Source: Squalus acanthias (Eukaryota). Taken from it: a DNA stretch of 64,000 bases. The DNA is taken from positions 100,876,001 through 100,940,000 of the forward strand of contig CM059431.1 in assembly GCA_030390025.1 (NCBI GenBank). The letters are read 5' to 3'. Of this stretch, positions 2,233 through 51,564 are shown in pieces; within the stretch, counting starts at the first letter, position 1; every line of letters starts with the position of its first letter. The notes beneath the pieces are model-generated. The model saw nothing but the letters and a program-made list of their open reading frames with translations, had not been told where the DNA came from and ran no database searches. The translations under genes were made by a program, and so were the position numbers.

Positions 2233-2947
2233 GGACCCAGAAATTGCTGGAAAAATAATGGCAAGTTCACGGCGCCCACCTTTATTAGTGCATAAAAAAC
2301 CCTGTAATTTGTGGCGAGGAAGAGGTACGCTGAAAGTTGTGAATCGCCACAAGTTGCTGGACAATGTGCGCTGCTCCGCTGTTAGCCTTTTGAAAACGGC
2401 AGCGCGCCCTCAACCTCCCCATCAGTTTCAAAAAATTGCTGGATTTGCGCCGTAATACAAATGAATCCCGTCCCAGATATTTAGGGCGAGTACTTCATGT
2501 CGAAAGGACCCCGTTAATGACGTGGTTTATGGTCCTGATGTGAAACTCAACCTCTCCGGCCCAGAAAGGGAACAATTGAAACTGTGGAGTCTGACTCCTG
2601 CAGCTAGTAAATTGTTCCTAGAGGTTATTTAATTTTAAATTGTAAAATGTTTTCTTAACTTTCCTTTCTGTCTCTTTTTTCTCTCTCTCTCTCTCTCTTA
2701 ATCCAATCTTTCTTTCCCTCTCTTTTTTTTCTCTACCTGATTTGACTCTAATTCACCCGATTTCCTTCTCCGTCGTTCCTCTGTTTCTTTGTCTATCCTT
2801 AAAATTTATGGGTTAAGGAGACAGACTGTTGGTCCCGTCAGTCCCAGCAGTTTACAGTGCAAAAATAATACGATCTGAAGGGTGAGGAAAACAATCCAAT
2901 TCACGTGGCTCGCCGCGAGATGCCCCACTCCAGTAAATTCTAGGCCT
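2233..2947. mobile_element. MITE-like element with imperfect 18-bp TIRs
   Basis: ggacccagaaattgctgg versus the reverse complement of the right end, aggcctagaatttactgg. CpG-richer ends and a CT-rich interior. Confidence 0.55.
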
Positions 2948-3361
2948 AAGTGTCCAGGAGGTCCAATAGACCACCTGAGCTCTTTGTAAACCAGGTTTGG
3001 CACCCCATTGGATTTACAATCCATACAGTGTCAAACCAAAGTGGTGTAAGACCAAGCCTCCAGGTAATCACTCCGTTAGGTCAGGCTCTGACTACTGATT
3101 AATACCGCCAATTTTATTTAAGTTTGATCTCTGGATGTGGGTAACGCTGGTAGGACCCCATTCATTGTCCATCCCAAGTTACCCTGAGAAGGCCGAGGTA
3201 GACTGCAGCCTTGAACTACTGCGATCTTGTAGTTTAGCATAGTGTGAAGCAGAAATCATTTCACATTGATGCTAAACTGAGGCCACTTTGGGTCACTTTC
3301 CTGAACCAGTTAACAGGCGAGTATAGGCTTCATTTGGCTCAGGAATAAGTGACTGATCCCA

Positions 3362-3715: not shown

Positions 3716-4223
3716 CTCTTAGTCAAAGAATAGTGTCCAGCCTACACAGGCCCTGAAGGAGAGAAGGGTGTTAAATCAGCAAAACTAGAAGCCAATGAAG
3801 GATTTAAAAATAAATAGATTTTTCATTATGGTAATGTGGCAGCCATACTGACTGCAGTTGAAAGTAGAAGTGAAGGTTTAGAAACCAATTGTGTTATTGA
3901 ACTTATATTACAAGGACGTTTCTATAAAGATTCAGCAGTTCATGTTCCTGTAATTGTCAACTTCCGATATCAGGCAGTCATTGTTATTGAAATTGTTCAG
4001 CATTAAATGCTATCTCTACACCCATGTACCCCACAGGCCAGTTACATTTTTAAGAATCTCTATATATTACACAAATTATGGGTATATGGGGCATGAATTA
4101 TAAGTGTGTGTGTGTAGGGGAGCCACATTAGTTTAGGGCTTGTATGATCACTTGTGGCTATACAACAGGTATGCGCATTACTCCCAAACTAAATCAGCTC
4201 CATTCTTGAAATAAAAATACATA

Positions 4224-4346
4224 CAGGTTGAGCGTCCAAAATCCGGAGTTCCGGAATCCGGACTCCGGGACAATTGGTGGCAGGGTCGTTTGGATTCCGT
4301 AAAATGTTCCGGAATCCGGAACTCCGGATTTTGGACGCTCAACCTG
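4224..4346. mobile_element. Tc1/mariner (pogo/Tigger-like) MITE
   Basis: Perfect 32-bp TIR CAGGTTGAGCGTCCAAAATCCGGAGTTCCGGA, flanked by TA on both sides. Confidence 0.85.
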
Positions 4347-4348
4347 TA

Positions 4349-4786
4349 CTTCAAAAAGCCATTAACTTTTGTTGTCTTTTTTTTTAAATCCTATGAAAAA
4401 TGCGAGTGATGCAATAAAACTTTAGTGTTGTGTTTTATCCTCTTTAATCTGCACAGCTCCACTAAGTGTTTCCGCCAGGCTGCGGCCACGGCACCACGCC
4501 GCCCTGGTGGCCTAGTGTGGGCCATCGGATGCTCTGCTGGAGCGCGCAGCGTCCCTCCCCTTTAACAGAAGGGGAGGGGCGGAGAAAAGCGTCAGCGCTA
4601 CGCGGAGCAGCCCAGGCATTTCCGGACTCGGAACGTGTTTCTGATGTCCGAAGTCCGGAAACGCCCGAGCCCAGGTTGCGATATTTCCGGACTTCGGACA
4701 TCAGAAACACGTTCCAAAGTCCGGAAAAACACGAAAACCGGCTTGGCCTCGGTCCCGAGTTTGCCAGATTCAGGACGCTCAACCTG
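4349..4786. mobile_element. Body and right end of a longer element of the same TcMar family
   Basis: Many TCCGGA repeats; ends in ggacgctcaacctg followed by TA (4787-4788), the same right TIR as at 4346. Confidence 0.65.
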
Positions 4787-4869
4787 TACGATATATTTAT
4801 TATAATAATGTACTATACAGTATTTATTTCACATCATCAACTCCAGAGCAGTATAGCAATACTCTTTCA

Positions 4870-5125
4870 CAGCAACAACAACTTGCATTTATATAGCGCC
4901 TTTAATGTAGTAAAACGTCCTATGGTCCTTCACAGGAGCGATTATCAAACAAAATTTGACACCGAGCCACATCAGCAGATATTAGGGCAGGTGACCCAAA
5001 GCTTGGTGAAAGAGGTAGGTTTTAAGGGGCGTCTTAAAGGAGGAAAGAGAGGTGGAGAGGTGGAGAGGTTTAGGGAGGGAATTCCAGAGCTTAGGGCCCA
5101 GGCAGCTGAAGGCATGGCCACCACT
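4870..5125 (-). mobile_element. L2 3' fragment
   Basis: caacaacaacttgcatttatatagcgccttt tail and the shared L2 body. Confidence 0.85.
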
Positions 5126-5509
5126 GCTGAAGTGAAGGAAATAGGGGATTTCACAGGACTATTATACTACACAGAAAACATGAAATAATCAGTAAGTTCC
5201 CCCACATATCATTACCCGTCTACAAATCACAACAGGAAAAATTAAGGACAGCAAACACAACTGTAAAAGAAAGTAAAAGACATCAGCACTTAAGGAAAAA
5301 TCCTTTCTTTCCCTCTAACCCTATCTGCCATCAAGTCCGTCTCTCCCTCTTGGAGCTGATGCCCCTCTTATTAATTTTAATACTTCTTATTCATTCCACA
5401 TCTGATTTTACCTCCATTTTGTCTGCTTCTCTCCTGAAGGTTCTTCCTTATGCTGCGGTAGAGTCCAGGACCTTTCTTCGTGCAGTATTCGCGGAGCACA
5501 AAACTGTTC

Positions 5510-6430
5510 CGACCTAATGTAGTCACTGTTGTAATGTAGGAAACCGCAGCAGCCAATTTGTGCACAGCAAGCTCCCACAAACAGCAATGTGACAATGATC
5601 AGATAACCAGTTTTAGTGATGTTGGTTGCAGGATAAATATCGACTCGATCACCAGGGAGAACTCCCATGCTCTACTTTGAAATAGTGGCCATGGGATCTT
5701 TTATGTCCACCTGAGAAGGCAGACGGGGCCGCGGTTTAATGTCTTATCCGAAAGACGGCACCTCTGACAGTGCGGCGCTCCCTCAGTACTGACCCTCCGA
5801 CAATGCAGCACTCGCTCAGTACTGACCCTCCGACAGTGCGGCGCTCCCTCAGTATTGCCCCTCCGACAGTGCGGCGCTCCCTCAGTATTGTCCCTCCGAC
5901 AGTGCAGCACTCCCTCAGTACTGACCCTCCGACAGAGCAGCGCTCCTTCAGTACTGACCCTCCGACAGTGCAGCATGCCCTCAGTACTGCCCCTCTGACA
6001 GTGCAGCACGCCCTCAGTACTGCCCCTCCGACAGTGTGGCGCTCCCTCAGTACTGCCCCTCCGACAGTGCAGCACTCCCTCATTACTGCCCCTCCGACAG
6101 TGCAGCACTCCCTCAGTACTGCCCCTCCGACAGTGCAGCACTCTCTCAGTACTGCCCCTCCGACAGTGCGGCGCTCCCTCAGTACTGCCCCTCCGACAGT
6201 GCAGCACTCTCTCAGTACTGCCCCTCCGACAGTGCAGCACTCTCTCAGTACTGCCCCTCCAACAGTGCGGCGCTCCCTCAGTACTGCCCCTCCGACAGTG
6301 CAGCACTCCCTCAGTACTGCACTGCAAGTGTCAGCCTAGATTTTGTGCTCAAGTCTCTGAGCGGGACTTGAACCCACAACCATCTGACTCATAGGCGAGC
6401 GTGCTACCCACTGAGCCACGGCTGACACCA
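5510..6430 (-). mobile_element. Deu-domain tRNA-derived SINE (SacSINE1-like) with an internal minisatellite
   Basis: A-box gtggctcagtgg and B-box ggttcaagtccc at the 6360-6430 end; Deu core ggtgccgtctttcggat..aaaagatcccatggc. The family name is from memory. Confidence 0.8.
5760..6320. repeat. 33-bp minisatellite, about 17 copies
   Basis: Unit ccctccgacagtgcagcactccctcagtactgc; it produces the 11-aa repeat ORFs (STAPPTVQHSL). Confidence 0.95.
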
Positions 6431-6743
6431 TAGGCAGCAGTAATGAGACCACTGGCTATTTATTTCCCTTCCAGTGTTCTGGGATGTCAGAACTGTTTGT
6501 TGCACCCCTACTGCAGCTCCTTCTGAGCTCAACTAACTCAACACAGATTTATTTTTGTTGGGTAAGGGAATTAAGGGTTACAGAACCAAGGCGGGTAGCT
6601 GGAGTTGAGATACAGATCAGCCGTGATCTAATTGAATCGCAGAACAGGTTCGAGGGACTGAATGGCCTCCTCCTGATCCGATGTTCCTCAACCTGTATGT
6701 TTCAGCACCACACAGAGTTGTTCATTTATCCACTCAAACATTA

Positions 6744-7441
6744 GGGGGGGGGGAAATTGGCTCACGCCCCCTTCGGGGCGATAACTTCGCCGGGGCGCTA
6801 CTATTAGCGCTCCGAAAATGTTAGCTGCCCCCGCGTCCGAAATTCAATAGTAGCACCCCAAGCAGGAGGCGGGGCGCTACTGGAAGTGCTCCCCCTCCCT
6901 CTTGGGGCGCTCCCATGGAATATCGCACGCTACGTGCAACAGGCCTCCCTCCCCTGATTAAAGAGGGGCCTAGCGCAGTGCGCTCCGGGGCCCTGCTGGA
7001 CCACCGGGGAGCGTGGTGCCGGCGAAAGAGCCCAGTACTCAAGAGGAGTGCCGGGCTGACGGATCACGGCCGGCACCCCGCAGGAGGAGGCGAGAGGGGG
7101 CAGGTGCTGGCAGGCGGCCCAAAAAAAAAGACCACCCGGCACCGGCCCTTTAATTATCGCCCCCCCAGCCGCAAAAACACCACCCTGACCCTGTCGGACA
7201 TGGCGCCCGCGGTAGGTCAGGGGGCACGAGCCAAGTTTGTGGCCGGGGCACGAGCAGGGCGCTGCGCACGGCGATGATGTCATCACCAGAGGAGCAGTGC
7301 CGCGGGGCACTACCGGCCACCGCTACCGCTAACCTCCCGCTGTATTTTGTTGGAGGCGTTAGCGGCGCCGCGCCCGGGCGCTAGTTGCTTTACGCCCCGT
7401 TATCGCTAACGGGAGGCGCAAAGCAACCAAATTTTTCCCCC
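6744..7441. mobile_element. GC/CpG-rich non-autonomous DNA element (MITE-like, superfamily unresolved)
   Basis: Termini gggggaaattgg / ccaaatttttccccc and repeated ggggcg(c/a)ta motifs. Homologous to 33999-34260 plus 36580-37026. Confidence 0.65.
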
Positions 7442-8306
7442 TTTGAATTTAGCACATTTCTCCAGTTCTCGGCTTAGTGATATGGCTACTGTCAGACACT
7501 ACTGTCATATTTGCATCACATGACTATGAGAGCCTAATCGAAAGTCATAGAAAAAACAAATTAGTTCTCCGAGAAACAACAAAAACAATTATTTCAGCCC
7601 AGAAAATTTGCAGGGCTCTGGGGAAAGAGCAGGGGGAGTGGGACTAATTGGAGAGCTCGTTCAAAGAGCCGGCACAGGCACGATGGGCCGAATGGCCTCC
7701 TGTGCTCTACAATTCTATGTAAATTAGATGCGCATGCTGCAAACATAATTGATGGTATAATTACAAATACCAAACTGTTCTAGATGTGATATGACATTTA
7801 AATAACTCGTGGTCACAACAAGACCCAACAATCTGACTCACAGTTTTATTGCTTGTGTATTTTACAGTTCAATCCAATTATTTAAATGTTGGATTACTGC
7901 AACCAGTGTGGTATCTTTTATCTTCTATATCAGCTTGGCTTTTTTTCCATGTCCATTTCATCCCCTCCTGAAGGCGTTGACTCCTTGCAAGGACACTGTT
8001 CCACAGACACTGGTTGCTGTGCGGGACCTTTCCATGCTAGTTATTATTCATGTGTGATCCCATATAGTGAGTGCCCACAGGCTAATTGACTGTGGGGGTG
8101 GGGGTGGGGGGGGGGGAGAGGGTAGCACAGGCGAGCCTACTCCAATGTCTACACCTCTTCAGCAGGGGCCAATCAATGGATAACAATCAGGAGCACAAAG
8201 CCCGGCTGGGTTTTCCTTCCGAATCCAGGGGAGTTGATGTCAATTGTTGCATGCCTATTGTTGCCCTGGGTAGTGGTTATATCAGAACAAAGTCAAACGT
8301 AGCTGT

Positions 8307-8507
8307 CATGATGCGGAGATGCCGGTGTTGGACTGGGGTGGACAAAAGTGAGAAGTCGCACATCACCAGGTTATAGTCCAACAGCTTTATTTGAAATCAC
8401 AAGCTTTCGGAGCGCTGCTCCTTCTTCACCTGACGAAGGAGCAGTGCTCCGAAAGCTTGTGATTTCAAATAAAGCTGTTGGACTATAACCTGGTGTTGTG
8501 CGACTTC
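8307..8507. mobile_element. Penelope-like fold-back insertion, family A
   Basis: 73-bp inverted arms at 8352-8424 and 8435-8507. TSD tcaaac(g/t)tagctgt at 8293-8306 and 8506-8519. Same sequence family as 48516-49089. Confidence 0.8.
8426..8462 (+). ncRNA. Minimal type I hammerhead ribozyme motif
   Basis: tcac-CTGACGA-A-GGAGC agt GCTCC-GAA-AGCT-T-gtga. Stem I is tcac/gtga, stem II is 5 bp, helix III is the palindrome AGCT. Confidence 0.75.
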
Positions 8508-8674
8508 AAACTTAGCTGTGACATAGCTCTTGATCAAATCGCCTGCTAACAAGATTTGCACGTGAATACTCGGAACAAACTAGTGAATCAAATCTGGGAT
8601 CTTCCTGGTTTGTACAATTCAACCACCCTTTGCAAAAGCTTGCTGAGAGATTGGGGGAGCCATTTTGTGCTTTC

Positions 8675-9180
8675 AGCAACAACAACTTGCATTTATATAA
8701 TGTCTTTATAGTTGTGTAACGTCCCAAGGCGCTTCACAGGAGCGTTATCAGACAAAAATTGGCACCGAGCCACATAGGGAGGTATTAGGACAAGTGACCA
8801 AAAGCTTGGTCAAAGAGGTAGGTTTTAAGAAGCTACTTAAAAGAGGAGAGGTGGAGAGGCTTAGGGTGAGAATTCTAGAGCTTAGGGCCCAGGCAGCTGA
8901 AGAAGGCATGACCGCCAATGGTGGGGCGAATTAATCGGGGATTTGCAAGAGGCCAGAATTGGAGTAGCACAGAGATCTCGGAGGGTTGTAGAGCTGGAGG
9001 AGGTTACAGAGATAGTGATGGGGGAAAGGCCGTGGAGGGCTTTGAATGCAAAGATGAGAATTTTGAAATCGAGGCGTTGCTTAACTGGGAGCCAATGTAG
9101 GTCAGCGAGCACAGGGGGTGATGGGTGAACGGGACTTGGTGCGAGTTAGGATACGGACAGCAGAGTTTTGGATGAGCTCT
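8675..9180 (-). mobile_element. L2 3' fragment
   Basis: LADLHWLPVKQRLDFKILIFAFKALHGL and the L2 tail. Confidence 0.87.
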
Positions 9181-46682: not shown

Positions 46683-47747
46683 ACAGACTAGTATCTAATC
46701 TTGAGATGCTGAATTAAAAGTCCAGTCCTCTTGTATTGCAACTATGGCATCAGAGAGCCCAGGTTTAATCTTTTCTTTTAATACAAGCTTTCTTTCTTCA
46801 ACCTTTATTCTGATGTAAAACTAATATTCCAAAAATATATTTTGTAAAGCAGTTAATATACATCAACAAAATATGAGTAAAATTTCTATAGTCAGACTTT
46901 GAAAGCCTATTTCCACTGGAGAATGCCAGTTTCAACAATTCTAGTAAAATTTCCCATTTATTTTCCTTAGTAAAACATCTACTGCTCAGTTTTTTCCAGT
47001 TGCCAGCCTTTTCCTGGGTGTATTAGCTAAAAACAGGAAATTGTCGGGGAACACCAGATCATAATCCAAATAATCAGTCAAAACCACAGCCCTGCAAACA
47101 GGAACTTCTTCACTTCACACAGAGAGAGTAACTAAGGTAATAAGGCATCAGTGACTAAGATGACATCAGGGAAAAAGAGAAATAAGTCAAAGCTAAAGGC
47201 ACTATATCTGAATGCGCGAAGCATTCGCAACAAAATAGATGAATTAATAGCGCAGATAGAAATGAACAGGTTTGATCTAATAGCCATAACAGAGACGTGG
47301 TTGCAAAGTGGCCAAATTTGGGAACTAAATGTTCCAGGATACATAACTTTTAGAAGGGATAGGCAATATGGAAAAGCCCTGATAATAAAGGATGGGATAA
47401 AGACAGTAGAGAGAAAGGATCTTAGCTTCGAAAATCAAGAAGTAGAATCAGTTTGGGTGGAGCTAAGAAACAGCAAGGGGCAGAAAACATTGGTGGGAGT
47501 TGTTTATAGGCCCCCAAACAGTAATTGTAATGTAGGGCAGAGTATAAATCAGGAAATTAGAGGCGCATGTAACAAGGGTAATACAGTAATCATGGGCGAC
47601 TTTAATCTACATATAGACTGGGCAAACCAAATTTGCAGTAATAGTGTGGAGGACGAATTCATGGAATGTATGCAAGATAGTTTTCTAGATCAGTATGTTG
47701 AGGAACCAACTAGGGAACAGGCTATTTTAGATCTAGTATTGTGTAAC

Positions 47748-48280
47748 ATAGAAGATAGGAGCAGGAGTAGGCCATCCGGCCCTTCGAGCCTGCTCCGCCA
47801 TTTAATGAGATCATGGCTGATCCTCCAATTCAGTATCCCGTCCCCGCCTTCTCTCCGTAACCCTTAACCCCTTTTGCCTGTAGAAATACATCTAATTCCC
47901 TCTTAAATATATTTAATGAGCTGGCGTACACTGCCCTCTGTGGCAATGAGTTCCACAGGTTCACCACCCTCTGAGTGAAGAAATTCCCCCTCATTTCTGT
48001 CCTAAATGGTTTAGCCCTTATCCTTAAATTATGTCCTCTAGTTCTGTTCTCACCCGCCAAGGGAAACATTCCTTCTGCATCTAGTCTGTCTAGACCTGTC
48101 AGAATTTTATACACTTCTATGAGGTCCCCTCTCAATCTTCTAAACTCCAGTGTGTACATCCCTAAACTACATAGTCTCTCCTCATAGGTCAATCCCGCCA
48201 TTCCTGGTATCAGCCTGGTGAATCGCCGCTGCACCCCCTCCATGGCAAGAACATCTTTCCTCAGATGAGGCGACCAAAAC
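47748..48280 (-). mobile_element. 5'-truncated CR1 inserted antisense into the long CR1
   Basis: ORF 47830-48243 is the CR1 ORF2 C-terminus. TSD tgtaac at 47742-47747 and 48281-48286. Confidence 0.9.
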
Positions 48281-48563
48281 TGTAACGAGAAAGGGTTAAT
48301 TAATAACCTTGTAGTAAAGAGGCCTTTAAGGAAGAGTGACCATAATATGATAGAATTTTACATTGAGTTTGAAAGTGACTTAGTTAAATCCGAAACTAGG
48401 GTCTTAAATCTAAACAAAGCAAACTATGTAGGTATGAGGGGCGAGTTGGTGAAGGTAGATTGGGAAACTACATTAAAAGGTATGACAGTGGACGAGCAAT
48501 GGCTAGCATTTAAAGTGAAAAGTCGCACAACACCAGGTTATAGTCCAACAGTTTTATTTGAAA

Positions 48564-48600
48564 TCACAAGCTTTCGGAGCGCTGCTCCTTCGTCAGGTGA
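48564..48600 (-). ncRNA. Minimal type I hammerhead ribozyme motif (CLYBL sense strand)
   Basis: The reverse complement reads tcac-CTGACGA-A-GGAGC agc GCTCC-GAA-AGCT-T-gtga. Confidence 0.75.
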
Positions 48601-48963
48601 AGTAAAGGAATACAAATCGACAAAGCATATATAGATAGAGAACAATGCATGTGTAGCGTACAATGGCAGACGACTACATTTAATCCTCCTGACTGCCTTT
48701 TGTCACACCTCGGCAGAGAAACAATCAGGTCAGCCAGGAAGGCACCACATCAAAGACATAGCAAGATACAACTGAGACAATGAGGTGGGGTTACAGGGGG
48801 TCTAATGTGTCAAAAGCTGCAGTCTGTATGGAAAACGATAAACTTTAAAATTTTTACTTTTTTTTACTGGAAATCACAAAAGTAAAAATGTTAAAGTTTA
48901 TTGTACGCTACACATGCATTGTTCTCTATCTATATATGCTTTGTCGATTTGTATTCCTTTACT

Positions 48964-49001
48964 TCACCTGACGAAGGAGCAGCCGCTCCGAAAGCTTGTG
49001 A
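48964..49001 (+). ncRNA. Minimal type I hammerhead ribozyme motif
   Basis: tcac-CTGACGA-A-GGAGC agcc GCTCC-GAA-AGCT-T-gtga, followed by AATAAA at 49007-49012. Confidence 0.75.
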
Positions 49002-49209
49002 TTTCAAATAAAACTGTTGGACTATAACCTGGTGTTGTGCGACTTCTCACTTTTGTCCACCCCAGTCCAACACCGGCATCTCCGCATCATAGCATTTAAA
49101 GAATTAATACATAATTTACAACAAATATACATTCCTTTAAGGCACAAAAACCCCACAGGAAAAGTGGTCCAACAAGAGAAGTTAAAGATAGTATTAGATC
49201 AAAGGAAGA

Positions 49210-49665
49210 AAAGAAAGAAAGACTTGCATTTATATAGCGCCTTTCACGACCACCGGACGTCTCAAAGCACTTTACAGCCAATGAAGTACTGTTGAAGTGT
49301 AGTCACTGTTGTAATGTGGGAAACGCAGGAGCCAAATTGTGCATAGCAAGCTCCCACAAACAGCAATGTGATAATGACCAGATAATCTGTTTTTGTTATG
49401 TTGATTGAGGGATAAATATTGGCCAGGACACCGGGGATAATTCCCCTGCTCTTCTTCGAAATAGTGCCATGGGATCTTTTACGTTCACCTGAGAAAGAAG
49501 ACGGGGCCTCGGTTTAACGTCTCATCCGAAAGACGGCACCTTCGACAGTGCAGCACTCCCTCACTGGAGTATCAGCCTAGATTTTTGGGCTCAAGTCCCT
49601 GGAGTGGGACTTGAACCTACAACCTTCTGACTCAGAGGCGAGTGTGCTACCCACTAAGCCACAGG
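49210..49665 (-). mobile_element. Deu-domain SINE nested in the long CR1
   Basis: Full-length copy; CR1 sequence (aaaggaaga...aagaggcttataat) lies on both sides. Confidence 0.87.
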
Positions 49666-51564
49666 TGAAACTATAAGAGGCTTATAATGCTGCCAAAAAG
49701 AGTAGTAAGCCTGATGATTGGGAGGATTTTAGAATTCAGCAAAGGAGGAACAAGAAATTGATAAAGAAAGGGAAAATAGAATATGAGAGTAAGCTAGCAA
49801 GAGACATAAAAACAGACTGTAAAAGCTTCTATAGGTATGTAAAAAGGAAAGATATTAGTATTAGTAAAAAAGTAGTACTGGAGAAATTAATGGGACTGAA
49901 AGCCGATAAATCCCCTGGACCTGATGGCCTACATCCTAGGGTTTTGAAAGAGTTGGCTATAGAGATAGTGGATGCATTGGTTGTCATTTTACAAAATTCC
50001 ATAGATTCTAGAACAGTTTCGGCAGATTGGAAGGTAGCAAATGTAACTCCACTATTTAAGAAAGGAGGGAAAGAGAAAACGGGGAACTACAGACCAGTTA
50101 GCCTGACATCAGTAGTAGGGAAAATGCTAGAATCTATTATTAAGGACGTGGTAACAGGGCACTTAGAAAATAATAATAGGATTGGGCAGAGTCAATACGG
50201 ATTTATGAAAGGGAAATCGTGTTTGATAAATCTGTTAGAGTTTTTTGAGGTTGTAACTAGCAGAATAGATAAGGGGGAACCAGTGGATGTGGTGTATTTG
50301 GATTTTCAGAAGGCATTCAATAAGATGCCACACAAGAGGTTATTAAACAAATTAGGGCTCATGGGATTGGGGTAATATACTCGCATGGATTGAGGATTGG
50401 TTAACGGACAGAAAACAGAGAGTAGGAATAAACGGGTCATTTTCGGGTTGGCAGGCTGTAACTAGTGGGGTACCGCAAGGATCAGTGCTTGGGCCTCAGC
50501 TATTCACAATCTACATCAATGATTTGGATGAGGGGACCAAATGTAATATATCCAAGTTTGCTGATGATACAAAGCTGGGTGGGAATGTAAGTTGTGAGGA
50601 GGATGCAAGGAGGCTTCAAGGGGATATAGACAGGCTAAGTGGGTGGGCAAGAACATGGCAAATGGAATATAATGTGAAGATATCCACTTTGGTAGGAAAA
50701 ATAGAAAAGCAGAGTATTTTTTAAATGGTGAGAGATTGGGAAATGTTGGTGTTCAGAGGGACCTGGGTGTCCTTGTACACGAATCACTGAAAGTTAACAT
50801 GCAGGTACAGCAAGCAATTAGGAAAGCAAATCGTATGTTGGCTTTTATTACAAGAGGATTTGAGTATAAGAGTAAAGACGTCTTACTGCAATTATATAGG
50901 GCCCTGGTGAGACCACACCTGGAGTATTGAGCACAGTTTTGGTCTCCTTACCTAAGGAAGGATATACTTGCCATAGAGGGAGTGCAACAAAGGTTCACCA
51001 GACTGGTCCCTGGGATGGGGGGATTGTCCTATGAGGACAGACTGAGTAGACTAGGCCTATATTCTCTAGAGTTTAGAAGAATGAGAGTTGATCTAATTGA
51101 AACATATAAAATTCTTACAGGGCTTGACAGGGTAGATGCAGGGAGGATGTTTCCCCCTAGCTGGAGAGTCTAGAACCAGGGATCACAGTCTCAGAATAAG
51201 GGGTCAGCCATTTAGAACTGAGATGAGGAGAAATTTCTTCACTCAGAGGGTGGTGAATCTTTGGAATTCTCTACCCCAGAGGGCTGTGGAGGCTCAGTCA
51301 TTGAGTATATTCAAGACAGAGATCGATAGATTTTTGAATATTAAGGGAATCAAGGGATATGGGGATTGTTCAGGAAAGTGGAAATGAGGTAGAAGATCAG
51401 CCATAATCTTATTGAATGGCGGAGCAGGCTCGAGGGGTCAAATGGCCGACTCCTGCTCCTTTTTCTTATGTTCTTATGTTTAGGAACTGCAAAAGAAATA
51501 CCTCTGATTAAGATAAGGTTCAGTCACTATTGCAAAATTGTGTAATAGCTTAAATGCATGCGTT

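Follow-up and report, generated by a model that had tools for sequence, protein, structure and literature searches.

The window analysed here is a 64,000-nt stretch of the Squalus acanthias contig CM059431.1 (positions 100,876,001 to 100,940,000 of assembly GCA_030390025.1). It contains a decayed LINE copy on the + strand (nt 47136–50724), recognised by domain matches in its Exo_endo_phos endonuclease and RVT_1 reverse transcriptase (RT) frames. This host LINE is broken, in the linker between endonuclease and RT, by an insert of 574 bp (nt 48516–49089) bounded by perfect 12-bp target-site duplications (TSDs), TAGCATTTAAAG. The left copy (nt 48504–48515) was located by repeat search and with the help of empty-site paralogues, and the right copy (nt 49090–49101) is 100% identical to it; neither is assigned to a strand. 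In all the 29 host-LINE paralogues examined both flanks were contiguous and the insert was absent: the exact 12-mer was present once in 26 of them, carried 1–2 substitutions in two and was affected by a small deletion in one. The 12-bp repeat is thus a true target-site duplication, and a single TSD around the whole insert, together with 29 out of 29 empty paralogous sites, indicates a single insertion event. The target site is AT-rich and contains ATT.

Two inverted arms, nt 48512–48664 and 48900–49053, account for 153 nt in all and differ by one 1-nt indel and one mismatch. They are made of a first block of 84 nt at 100% identity (nt 48581–48664 vs 48900–48983) and a second block of 70 nt at 99% (nt 48512–48581 vs 48984–49053). 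The last 4 nt of the left TSD copy, AAAG (nt 48512–48515), prolong the inverted repeat and represent microhomology with the element, and the 36 nt of the right end (nt 49054–49089) are without inverted partner. The longest stop-free frame within the insert has 61 codons. An initial annotation of this DNA, which had described an insert of about 570 bp with no coding sequence, near-perfect inverted arms of about 153 bp and a perfect 12-bp TSD, was therefore accurate on each of these points.

The same annotation had placed in each arm one full minimal hammerhead motif with an AGCU palindrome replacing helix III, and the reading of the sequence agrees, the motifs being of the minimal type-I kind. 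In the direct arm (nt 48964–49001, + strand, loop II AGCC) the motif consists of UCAC (nt 48964–48967), CUGACGA (nt 48968–48974), an extra A (nt 48975), the two strands of stem II, GGAGC (nt 48976–48980) and GCUCC (nt 48985–48989), GAA (nt 48990–48992), AGCU (nt 48993–48996), U17 (nt 48997) and GUGA (nt 48998–49001), with the cut predicted after U 48997. Its mirror in the inverted arm (nt 48564–48601, – strand, loop II AGC) runs from nt 48601 to 48564 and has its U17 at nt 48568, after which the cut is predicted. The indel that distinguishes the arms falls precisely in the hammerhead loop II, the left arm having AGC and the right arm AGCC. When the Rfam check proposed by the annotation was carried out, no hammerhead model matched either motif region: no match was obtained at the gathering score in the whole window, nor at E ≤ 10 in nt 48450–49150 (701 nt). 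The missing helix III may be the reason why the models do not retrieve these motifs. Weak miRNA-like Rfam matches at an AT-rich hairpin (nt 48835–48904), located at the junction between the two segments of the insert, were regarded as chance.

A genome-wide search with the pattern CTGACGA-N10-24-CGAAAGCT retrieved 44,815 matches, whereas its reversed control gave 29. When position 7 was set to A, G or T, 33,663 matches were obtained against 341, so that the two patterns together account for about 78,000 motifs in the genome vs 370 control matches. The frequency of the motif in the genome is far above chance. Nineteen motifs of several sub-families, three from the window and 16 hand-picked for different loop variants among the listed matches with A, G or T at position 7, were then aligned. 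The search pattern had fixed the hammerhead core and C11.1 beforehand, leaving G10.1 free; the core columns were invariant in 19/19 motifs, as demanded by the pattern. An extra A between positions 9 and 10.1 was present in 18 of the 19 motifs and the G10.1–C11.1 pair in all of them. Stem II was paired in 100% of cells, the only substitutions being from A-U or G-C to G-U. In stem I, the pair 2.3/1.3 was U-A in ten motifs, C-G in eight and unpaired in one, a switch that may reflect a single event separating two clades. Overall, 95.3% of the cells expected to pair did so, against 24–51% when the partners were slid. Loop II ranged from 3 to 8 nt in length, the AGC/AGCC variant being found in 11 among 100 listed C7 motifs, and position 7 was occupied by all four bases, some T7 copies probably being the product of CpG decay of C7. 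Match counts, pairing and loop variation together suggest that the motif is constrained.

These features can be compared with those of the minimal hammerheads of metazoan Penelope-like elements (PLEs) described by Cervera & de la Pena 2014 (PMC4209133). In the sections of that paper from the abstract to the early Methods, the motifs are located in the pseudo-LTRs (pLTRs), have an unpaired nucleotide 5' of stem II and a helix I of 4–5 bp, and occur as thousands of dispersed copies and as opposite-strand pairs 100–700 bp apart; single motifs do not cleave, and dimers do so weakly. As far as those sections go, the shark motif shares with them the CUGANGA...GAA core, the extra nucleotide before G10.1–C11.1, the palindromic AGCU at 15.2–16.2 in place of helix III, the 4-bp helix I and the pLTR position, together with A15.1–U16.1 and H17 (here U17); dispersed copies in the thousands and opposite-strand pairs are likewise common to both. 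On the contrary, stem II has 5 bp here vs 7–8 bp in the Schistosoma families of the same sections, and the number of pattern matches is well above the approximately 4,000–9,000 copies that those sections report for coelacanth and Xenopus. The same sections make no mention of sharks.

The 574-bp sequence was used as query against the 3.7-Gb assembly. The search returned 2,478 first-look candidates, 40 of which were scored and yielded 95 matches, mostly 97–100% identical; most of these 95 spanned query positions 1–363, or position 385 to an end between 534 and 574. One locus, L031, was found to contain one inverted copy and, after it, two direct copies repeated at a period of 3,116 bp. Its two direct copies are partial tandem copies of the kind that define pLTRs, and a tandem joint was also present in another locus, L024. 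One natural copy (L031:3650–6765, 3,116 bp) was adopted as the coordinate ruler for all the unit positions given below. Contig depth over L031:2700–4300 was highest on the motif-to-tail segment; the RNA or DNA nature of those contigs is uncertain and this observation has no bearing on transcription or cleavage.

The frames of L031 include one open for 646 codons. An RVT_1 match was obtained in L031:690–2630 on the – strand (E 1.8e-9, 38.1 bits, cut-off 29.6) and, in a second copy, at E 7e-9. The Pfam GIY-YIG domain was found in one copy at E 0.0013 with 19.4 bits, under the 22.6 cut-off, and was not recovered in another copy, when the last 200 aa of the 646-aa frame were scanned with Pfam. A VVY...YIGET...R...H pattern, which may be read as GIY-YIG, is visible in the translated ORF. 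A PDB sequence search with the 646-aa frame returned insignificant matches alone (best E 0.077). In a database search, 3,997 relatives were found at E ≤ 1e-5 among 8,000 candidates scored. The closest among the 120 homologues listed were shark proteins, with 84–91% identity, followed by proteins from turtle, tick, amphioxus and echinoderm, with 37–45% identity; many of these distant listed homologues carry precomputed PF00078 and PF01541 domains, PF01541 being present in many of those with 37–44% identity. Judged from its sequence, the 3,116-bp element is an autonomous, endonuclease-bearing PLE with a predicted RT and GIY-YIG-like ORF. The ORF stop lies at unit 2674, and unit 3116 corresponds to the first base, A, of its ATG. 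In the literature searched, no publication dealing specifically with this shark PLE family was found.

Once mapped on the unit, the insert resolves into two segments. The left one (nt 48516–48878, – strand) is an inverted 5'-truncated PLE copy running from unit 3080 down to unit 2714, with 99.5% identity over 367 nt, a length that counts 4 nt of microhomology; its outer end, at unit 3080, is without tail. Inverted-repeat search and unit mapping identified at the junction the hairpin mentioned above (nt 48835–48904, no strand assigned), whose 27-nt arms are 93% identical. Here, nt 48878–48901 are a sense copy of unit 2731–2754, that is, a 24-nt snap-back of the end of the inverted arm, which joins unit 2928 with about 173 nt skipped. 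The second segment (nt 48900–49089, + strand) is a direct 5'-truncated PLE copy covering unit 2928–3116, with 98.9% identity over 190 nt, and terminates at the A of the ATG of the element. Its last 36 nt (nt 49054–49089, + strand) correspond by unit mapping to an AC-rich tail present at one end only, according to the concept of tail in PMC8557442 and PMC11167929. Since the ORF stops at unit 2674, the entire insert is made of 3' UTR/pLTR sequence, none of it coding, and both arms are about 99% identical to this region of the 3,116-bp PLE.

The derivation from a PLE proposed by the initial annotation is thus supported, the genome search for an associated ORF that it had suggested having joined the arms to the 3' UTR of an RT-bearing, predicted autonomous element with a GIY-YIG-like region. 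Its estimate of a young insertion is likewise supported by the 99% identity with other copies, and the inverted 5' piece, which it regarded as frequent in PLE insertions, is present, as unit 3080–2714 in reverse. In Craig et al. 2021 (PMC8557442), PLE insertions are described as having partial tandems that constitute the pLTRs, an inverted 5'-truncated copy adjoining the direct copy and a 30–40-bp tail, often at one end only. Against the canonical EN+ PLE architecture presented there (with Evgen'ev & Arkhipova 2005 therein), nothing structural differs: pLTR tandems, upstream inverted copy, one-end tail and heavy 5' truncation are all shared.

Besides the insert's own locus, three other near-full matches (L002, L003 and L004), each covering at least 535 of the 574 query bases, were found, and all of them are fold-backs. 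Their junctions fall at unit positions 2909/2702, 2699/2925 and 2888/2735, respectively, all unlike that of the insert. Fold-back junctions that differ between loci imply independent events, and the three loci were rejected as copies of the insert's fold-back unit. Among the 30+4 loci examined, most show an inverted 5'-truncated copy adjoining a direct copy, and the 5' truncation points are spread between unit 208 and unit 2991; given this scatter, the idea that 5' ends start preferentially near unit 2700, forming a solo-pLTR or transcription-start class, was also rejected. Tandem ORF-less arrays were absent from the loci examined. A second, smaller fold-back of the same PLE family lies inside the window, at nt 8309–8507.

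The head-to-head arrangement is not confined to these loci. The 199 motif matches located in the initial 8.34 Mb of contig C1 gave 54 neighbouring (–,+) pairs within 5 kb, against five (+,–), six (++) and five (––) pairs, thus making the head-to-head hammerhead pair the commonest state of the motif in the genome; over half of the motifs in this region are taken in by such pairs. Both outer ends were readable in 16 fold-backs, after exclusion of four more that ran off the locus edge or were damaged. In 15 of the 16, one outer end was at unit 3115/3116 and the other at 3058–3088, and the remaining one had tails at both ends. At marker sites of 15 young fold-backs, the two arms were discordant in 22 out of 307 comparisons, where independent draws predict 63; the ratio of observed to expected discordance was 0.35 for arms and 0.74 for random copy pairs. 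Fold-back arms are therefore more alike than random copies, though not identical.

These data do not bear out the suggestion of the initial annotation that the insert is a non-autonomous, retrozyme-like unit, as it consists of two truncated 3' UTR pieces of the autonomous 3.1-kb element. The insert and the other fold-backs examined are independent, abortive insertion products and not copies of a mobile ORF-less unit. A retrozyme-like family, trans-mobilised by PLE proteins and propagating as a fold-back unit, might be invoked because the insert has no ORF and short 3'-end fragments of the element are very abundant. Moreover, a preprint (10.64898/2026.07.22.740005) derives animal non-LTR retrozymes from PLE pLTRs and reports retrozymes in the sole chondrichthyan sampled. 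We consider such an origin very improbable, in view of the 99% identity of both arms to the autonomous element's 3' UTR, the different junctions of L002–L004 with their scattered truncation points, and the lack of any tandem ORF-less array among the loci examined; retrozymes, in addition, are by definition head-to-tail tandem units, whereas the insert is head-to-head. Animal non-LTR retrozymes (Cervera & de la Pena 2020, PMC7229834; Li et al. 2026 preprint) resemble the insert in being ORF-less, hammerhead-bearing and PLE-related, and are characterised by head-to-tail tandems, circular RNAs and canonical type-I hammerheads. The insert, unlike them, is one isolated piece of an autonomous element in head-to-head arrangement, with a junction that is unique among the matches examined.

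Another explanation would be that two separate PLE insertions occurred, one beside or within the other. The arms are unlike at an indel that is polymorphic in the family, other fold-backs also show disagreement between their arms at shared markers (22/307), and the PLE endonuclease is reported to nick the element's own pLTR (PMC11167929), all of which would fit two events. However, one perfect 12-bp TSD encloses the composite, the empty site of the paralogues is intact, and no internal TSD is present. Moreover, the bias towards (–,+) pairs (54 vs 5) and the occurrence of one tail per fold-back in 15 out of 16 cases point to a coupled process and not to random nesting, so that two separate insertions appear highly unlikely. 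Finally, a fold-back DNA transposon or a MITE bounded by terminal inverted repeats, although suggested by the inverted arms, the TSD and the missing ORF, can be practically dismissed, the arms being internal PLE 3' UTR, the ends being asymmetric in that just one of them carries a 36-nt tail, and arm length and junction varying between copies.

We therefore regard it as highly probable that the insert is the dead-on-arrival product of one retrotransposition event of the autonomous PLE. A mechanistic frame is offered by the Poseidon element of Anolis carolinensis (PAc), studied in vitro by Frangieh et al. 2024 (PMC11167929): the PAc protein cuts and extends both DNA strands and acts on AT-rich targets with ATT preferred, two adjacent internal RT start sites bound the tail, and the hammerhead is protein-assisted. 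As for PAc, the two 3' ends of the insert, 36 nt apart, would correspond to two RT start sites, the tail region is AC-rich and the target is AT-rich with ATT; if both strands were extended as by PAc, head-to-head products such as the insert would result. The two elements are not superimposable, since the PAc ORF begins within the hammerhead and its RT starts are 111–118 nt into the ORF (PMC11167929), whereas in the shark element the ATG follows the predicted cut by 91 nt and its A marks the distal end.

One staggered target cut gave rise to the 12-bp duplication. Following the PAc biochemistry (PMC11167929), the rest of this single retrotransposition event would have proceeded as follows. The element protein would nick both DNA strands and prime reverse transcription on both, with one strand beginning at the distal RT start site, hence the tail, and the other beginning about 36 nt further upstream, at the proximal site, hence no tail. 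The two cDNAs would be joined through fold-back and microhomology, although extra, unproven steps are needed to account for the 24-nt snap-back and for the skip of 173 nt. On this reading, the two hammerhead motifs are passengers of the inverted duplication. In a full-length or tandem transcript, where the predicted cut falls 91 nt upstream of the ATG, the motif would instead be expected to act in the processing of the element RNA, probably as a dimer formed via the AGCU palindrome and probably with the help of protein.

A comparable outcome is known from the twin priming of L1, in which an inverted 5' segment and a direct 3' segment lie inside one TSD, with microhomology at the joints. In the insert, unlike in twin priming, the two segments overlap by about 150 nt and form a true inverted repeat, and the inverted arrangement is the majority state of the shark PLE family.

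The presence of AGC in one arm and AGCC in the other, a difference that is also polymorphic among family members, counts against a single-template event, by which it is not predicted. Fold-back arms might have been copied from two different templates held in one dimeric RNP, an idea that we consider rather unlikely. The templates would be either two RNAs, perhaps paired by the hammerhead palindrome, or two pLTRs of one tandem transcript, with two active sites locked onto the two adjacent RT start sites. Such a model would explain both the one-tail rule (15/16) and arms that differ at markers such as AGC/AGCC. In a rough binomial calculation with independent ends, whose expectation was derived from seven tailed and four tail-less simple copies, about 46% of fold-backs should be mixed, and at least 15 mixed out of 16 has a probability of about 1e-4. 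The one-tail rule and the partial discordance of the arms are thus compatible with a model of two coupled templates, but recurrent mutation and a set of loci that is small and was not drawn at random could account for the data just as well.

As to the activity of the motif, stems I and II were recovered as the minimum-energy structure of an isolated 58-nt motif. A transcript of the whole insert was instead predicted to fold into one long hairpin (–330.4 kcal/mol, z –31.7; shuffles –133 ± 6), as it carries the motif once in sense and, at a distance of 372 nt, its perfect complement. Since a read-through RNA with both sense and antisense motif would form a duplex of about 150 bp, the ribozyme is most likely inert in this fragment. 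Folding models thus indicate that, most likely, no ribozyme activity is produced by the insert from either strand, and that it would at most be a source of double-stranded RNA. The claim of the initial annotation that transcripts of either strand would contain a hammerhead holds formally, but it is misleading, as the motif is sequestered in the predicted long duplex (–330 kcal/mol). RNAcofold of the motif dimer gave an extended stem-II duplex, the kissing contact of a double hammerhead being outside the scoring of ViennaRNA. A footprint of cleaved templates was searched for in 30 (–,+) neighbour pairs, using as anchor the 17 nt downstream of the cut site, and gave cleaved templates no support: the 33-nt spacing corresponding to both arms beginning at the cut was found in none of the 30, and eight anchor pairs clustered at 92–118 nt, a spacing that corresponds to both arms ending 0–13 nt upstream of C3.

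The insert is thus an ordinary example of a class of elements known in print since 2014 and, in the annotation of this genome, should be masked as a PLE fragment and not recorded as a novel gene for a ribozyme or as a novel non-coding element. Loci with perfect 150-bp hairpins could feed small-RNA silencing of the PLE family. The genome around the insert offers abundant natural material on how PLEs integrate, a mechanism not yet solved, with tens of thousands of young copies (97–99% identical), a near-absolute head-to-head bias and the rule of one tail per fold-back. If the two-template model were true, the PLE hammerhead could serve, besides or instead of cleavage, the pairing of RNAs for symmetric two-strand integration.

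The minimal hammerhead pattern of Penelope-like elements (PLEs), in which an AGCU palindrome replaces helix III, gave ≈78,500 matches when counted over the whole assembly. The form with C at core position 7 was found 44,815 times (29 in the reversed control) and the form with A, G or T at this position 33,663 times (341 in the reversed control), while a 17-nt anchor sequence located directly 3' of the motif retrieved 57,113 matches against none in the control. The count in Squalus acanthias is several-fold higher than the 4,000–9,000 motifs that are quoted for coelacanth and Xenopus in the figures taken from PMC4209133.

The orientation of neighbouring motifs (within 5 kb) was evaluated from the listed motif and anchor matches in C1:1-8336386, a portion of one contig of the assembly. 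Hammerhead pairs were strongly biased towards the head-to-head (-,+) arrangement, with 54 pairs versus 5 (+,-), 6 (++) and 5 (--), and the anchor pairs were distributed in the same way (30 (-,+) versus 3 (+,-)). In about one third of the pairs the start-to-start distance was only 32–70 nt. A spacing of 92–118 nt was observed in 8 of the 30 head-to-head anchor pairs, and in these both arms end ≈0–13 nt upstream of the hammerhead core, thus suggesting a preferred junction, or 5' end, immediately 5' of the motif. None of the 30 head-to-head anchor pairs in C1 had arms ending at the predicted hammerhead cut site.

The tail, a 36-nt AC-rich end, was surveyed in loci L002-L032 and in the window fold-backs at 8309-8507 and 48516-49089, with positions counted on the 3,116-bp PLE unit of the reference copy (L031:3650-6765). 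Among the 16 fold-backs with both ends readable, 15 carried a single tail, with the tailed end at unit 3115/3116 and the opposite end at 3058-3088, whereas one was two-tailed and none was tail-less; simple copies carried the tail in seven cases and lacked it in four. The small fold-back at 8309-8507, an older member of the same PLE family (≈96%), consists of a tailed inverted arm (unit 3116-2997), whose truncation falls inside the hammerhead, and of a direct arm without tail (unit 2983-3073). Within single fold-backs of L002-L032, comparison of the two arms over 9,976 overlapping positions gave 166 differences, of which 49 lie at sites where other copies repeatedly show both alleles. Marker discordance between fold-back arms was 0.35 of that expected for independent draws, versus 0.74 for random copy pairs.

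The LINE hosting the 48516-49089 insert (window 47136-50724, with endonuclease and RT frames) belongs to a young and abundant family, with 3,630 first-look candidates in the search, 96–97% identity over the probe among the copies listed, and 29 paralogous loci (L036-L064) compared. It is broken a second time immediately to the right of the insert (window 49215-49300), by a sequence which we take to resemble a cartilaginous-fish SINE.

Directly 3' of the hammerhead (window 49002-49053), AAUAAA is followed by CUGUUGGAC, a segment retained with at most few substitutions in all 18 motifs, out of 19, for which the downstream flank could be read, drawn from different loop-II sub-families (window and L065-L080). 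In this PLE family the AC-rich tail comes next, and the conserved segment may represent the protein-binding or RT-initiation element. The distal insertion end, i.e. the tail end (L031:3649, unit 3116), coincides with the A of the PLE ATG, and the predicted cut lies 91 nt upstream of this codon, whereas in the Anolis PAc element the ORF begins within the hammerhead (PMC11167929). Near-identical 31-mers of the PLE were present, with a share of 0.37–0.59, in sequencing runs carrying the labels of no fewer than six distinct organisms, so that the family, or very close relatives of it, is common to several species.
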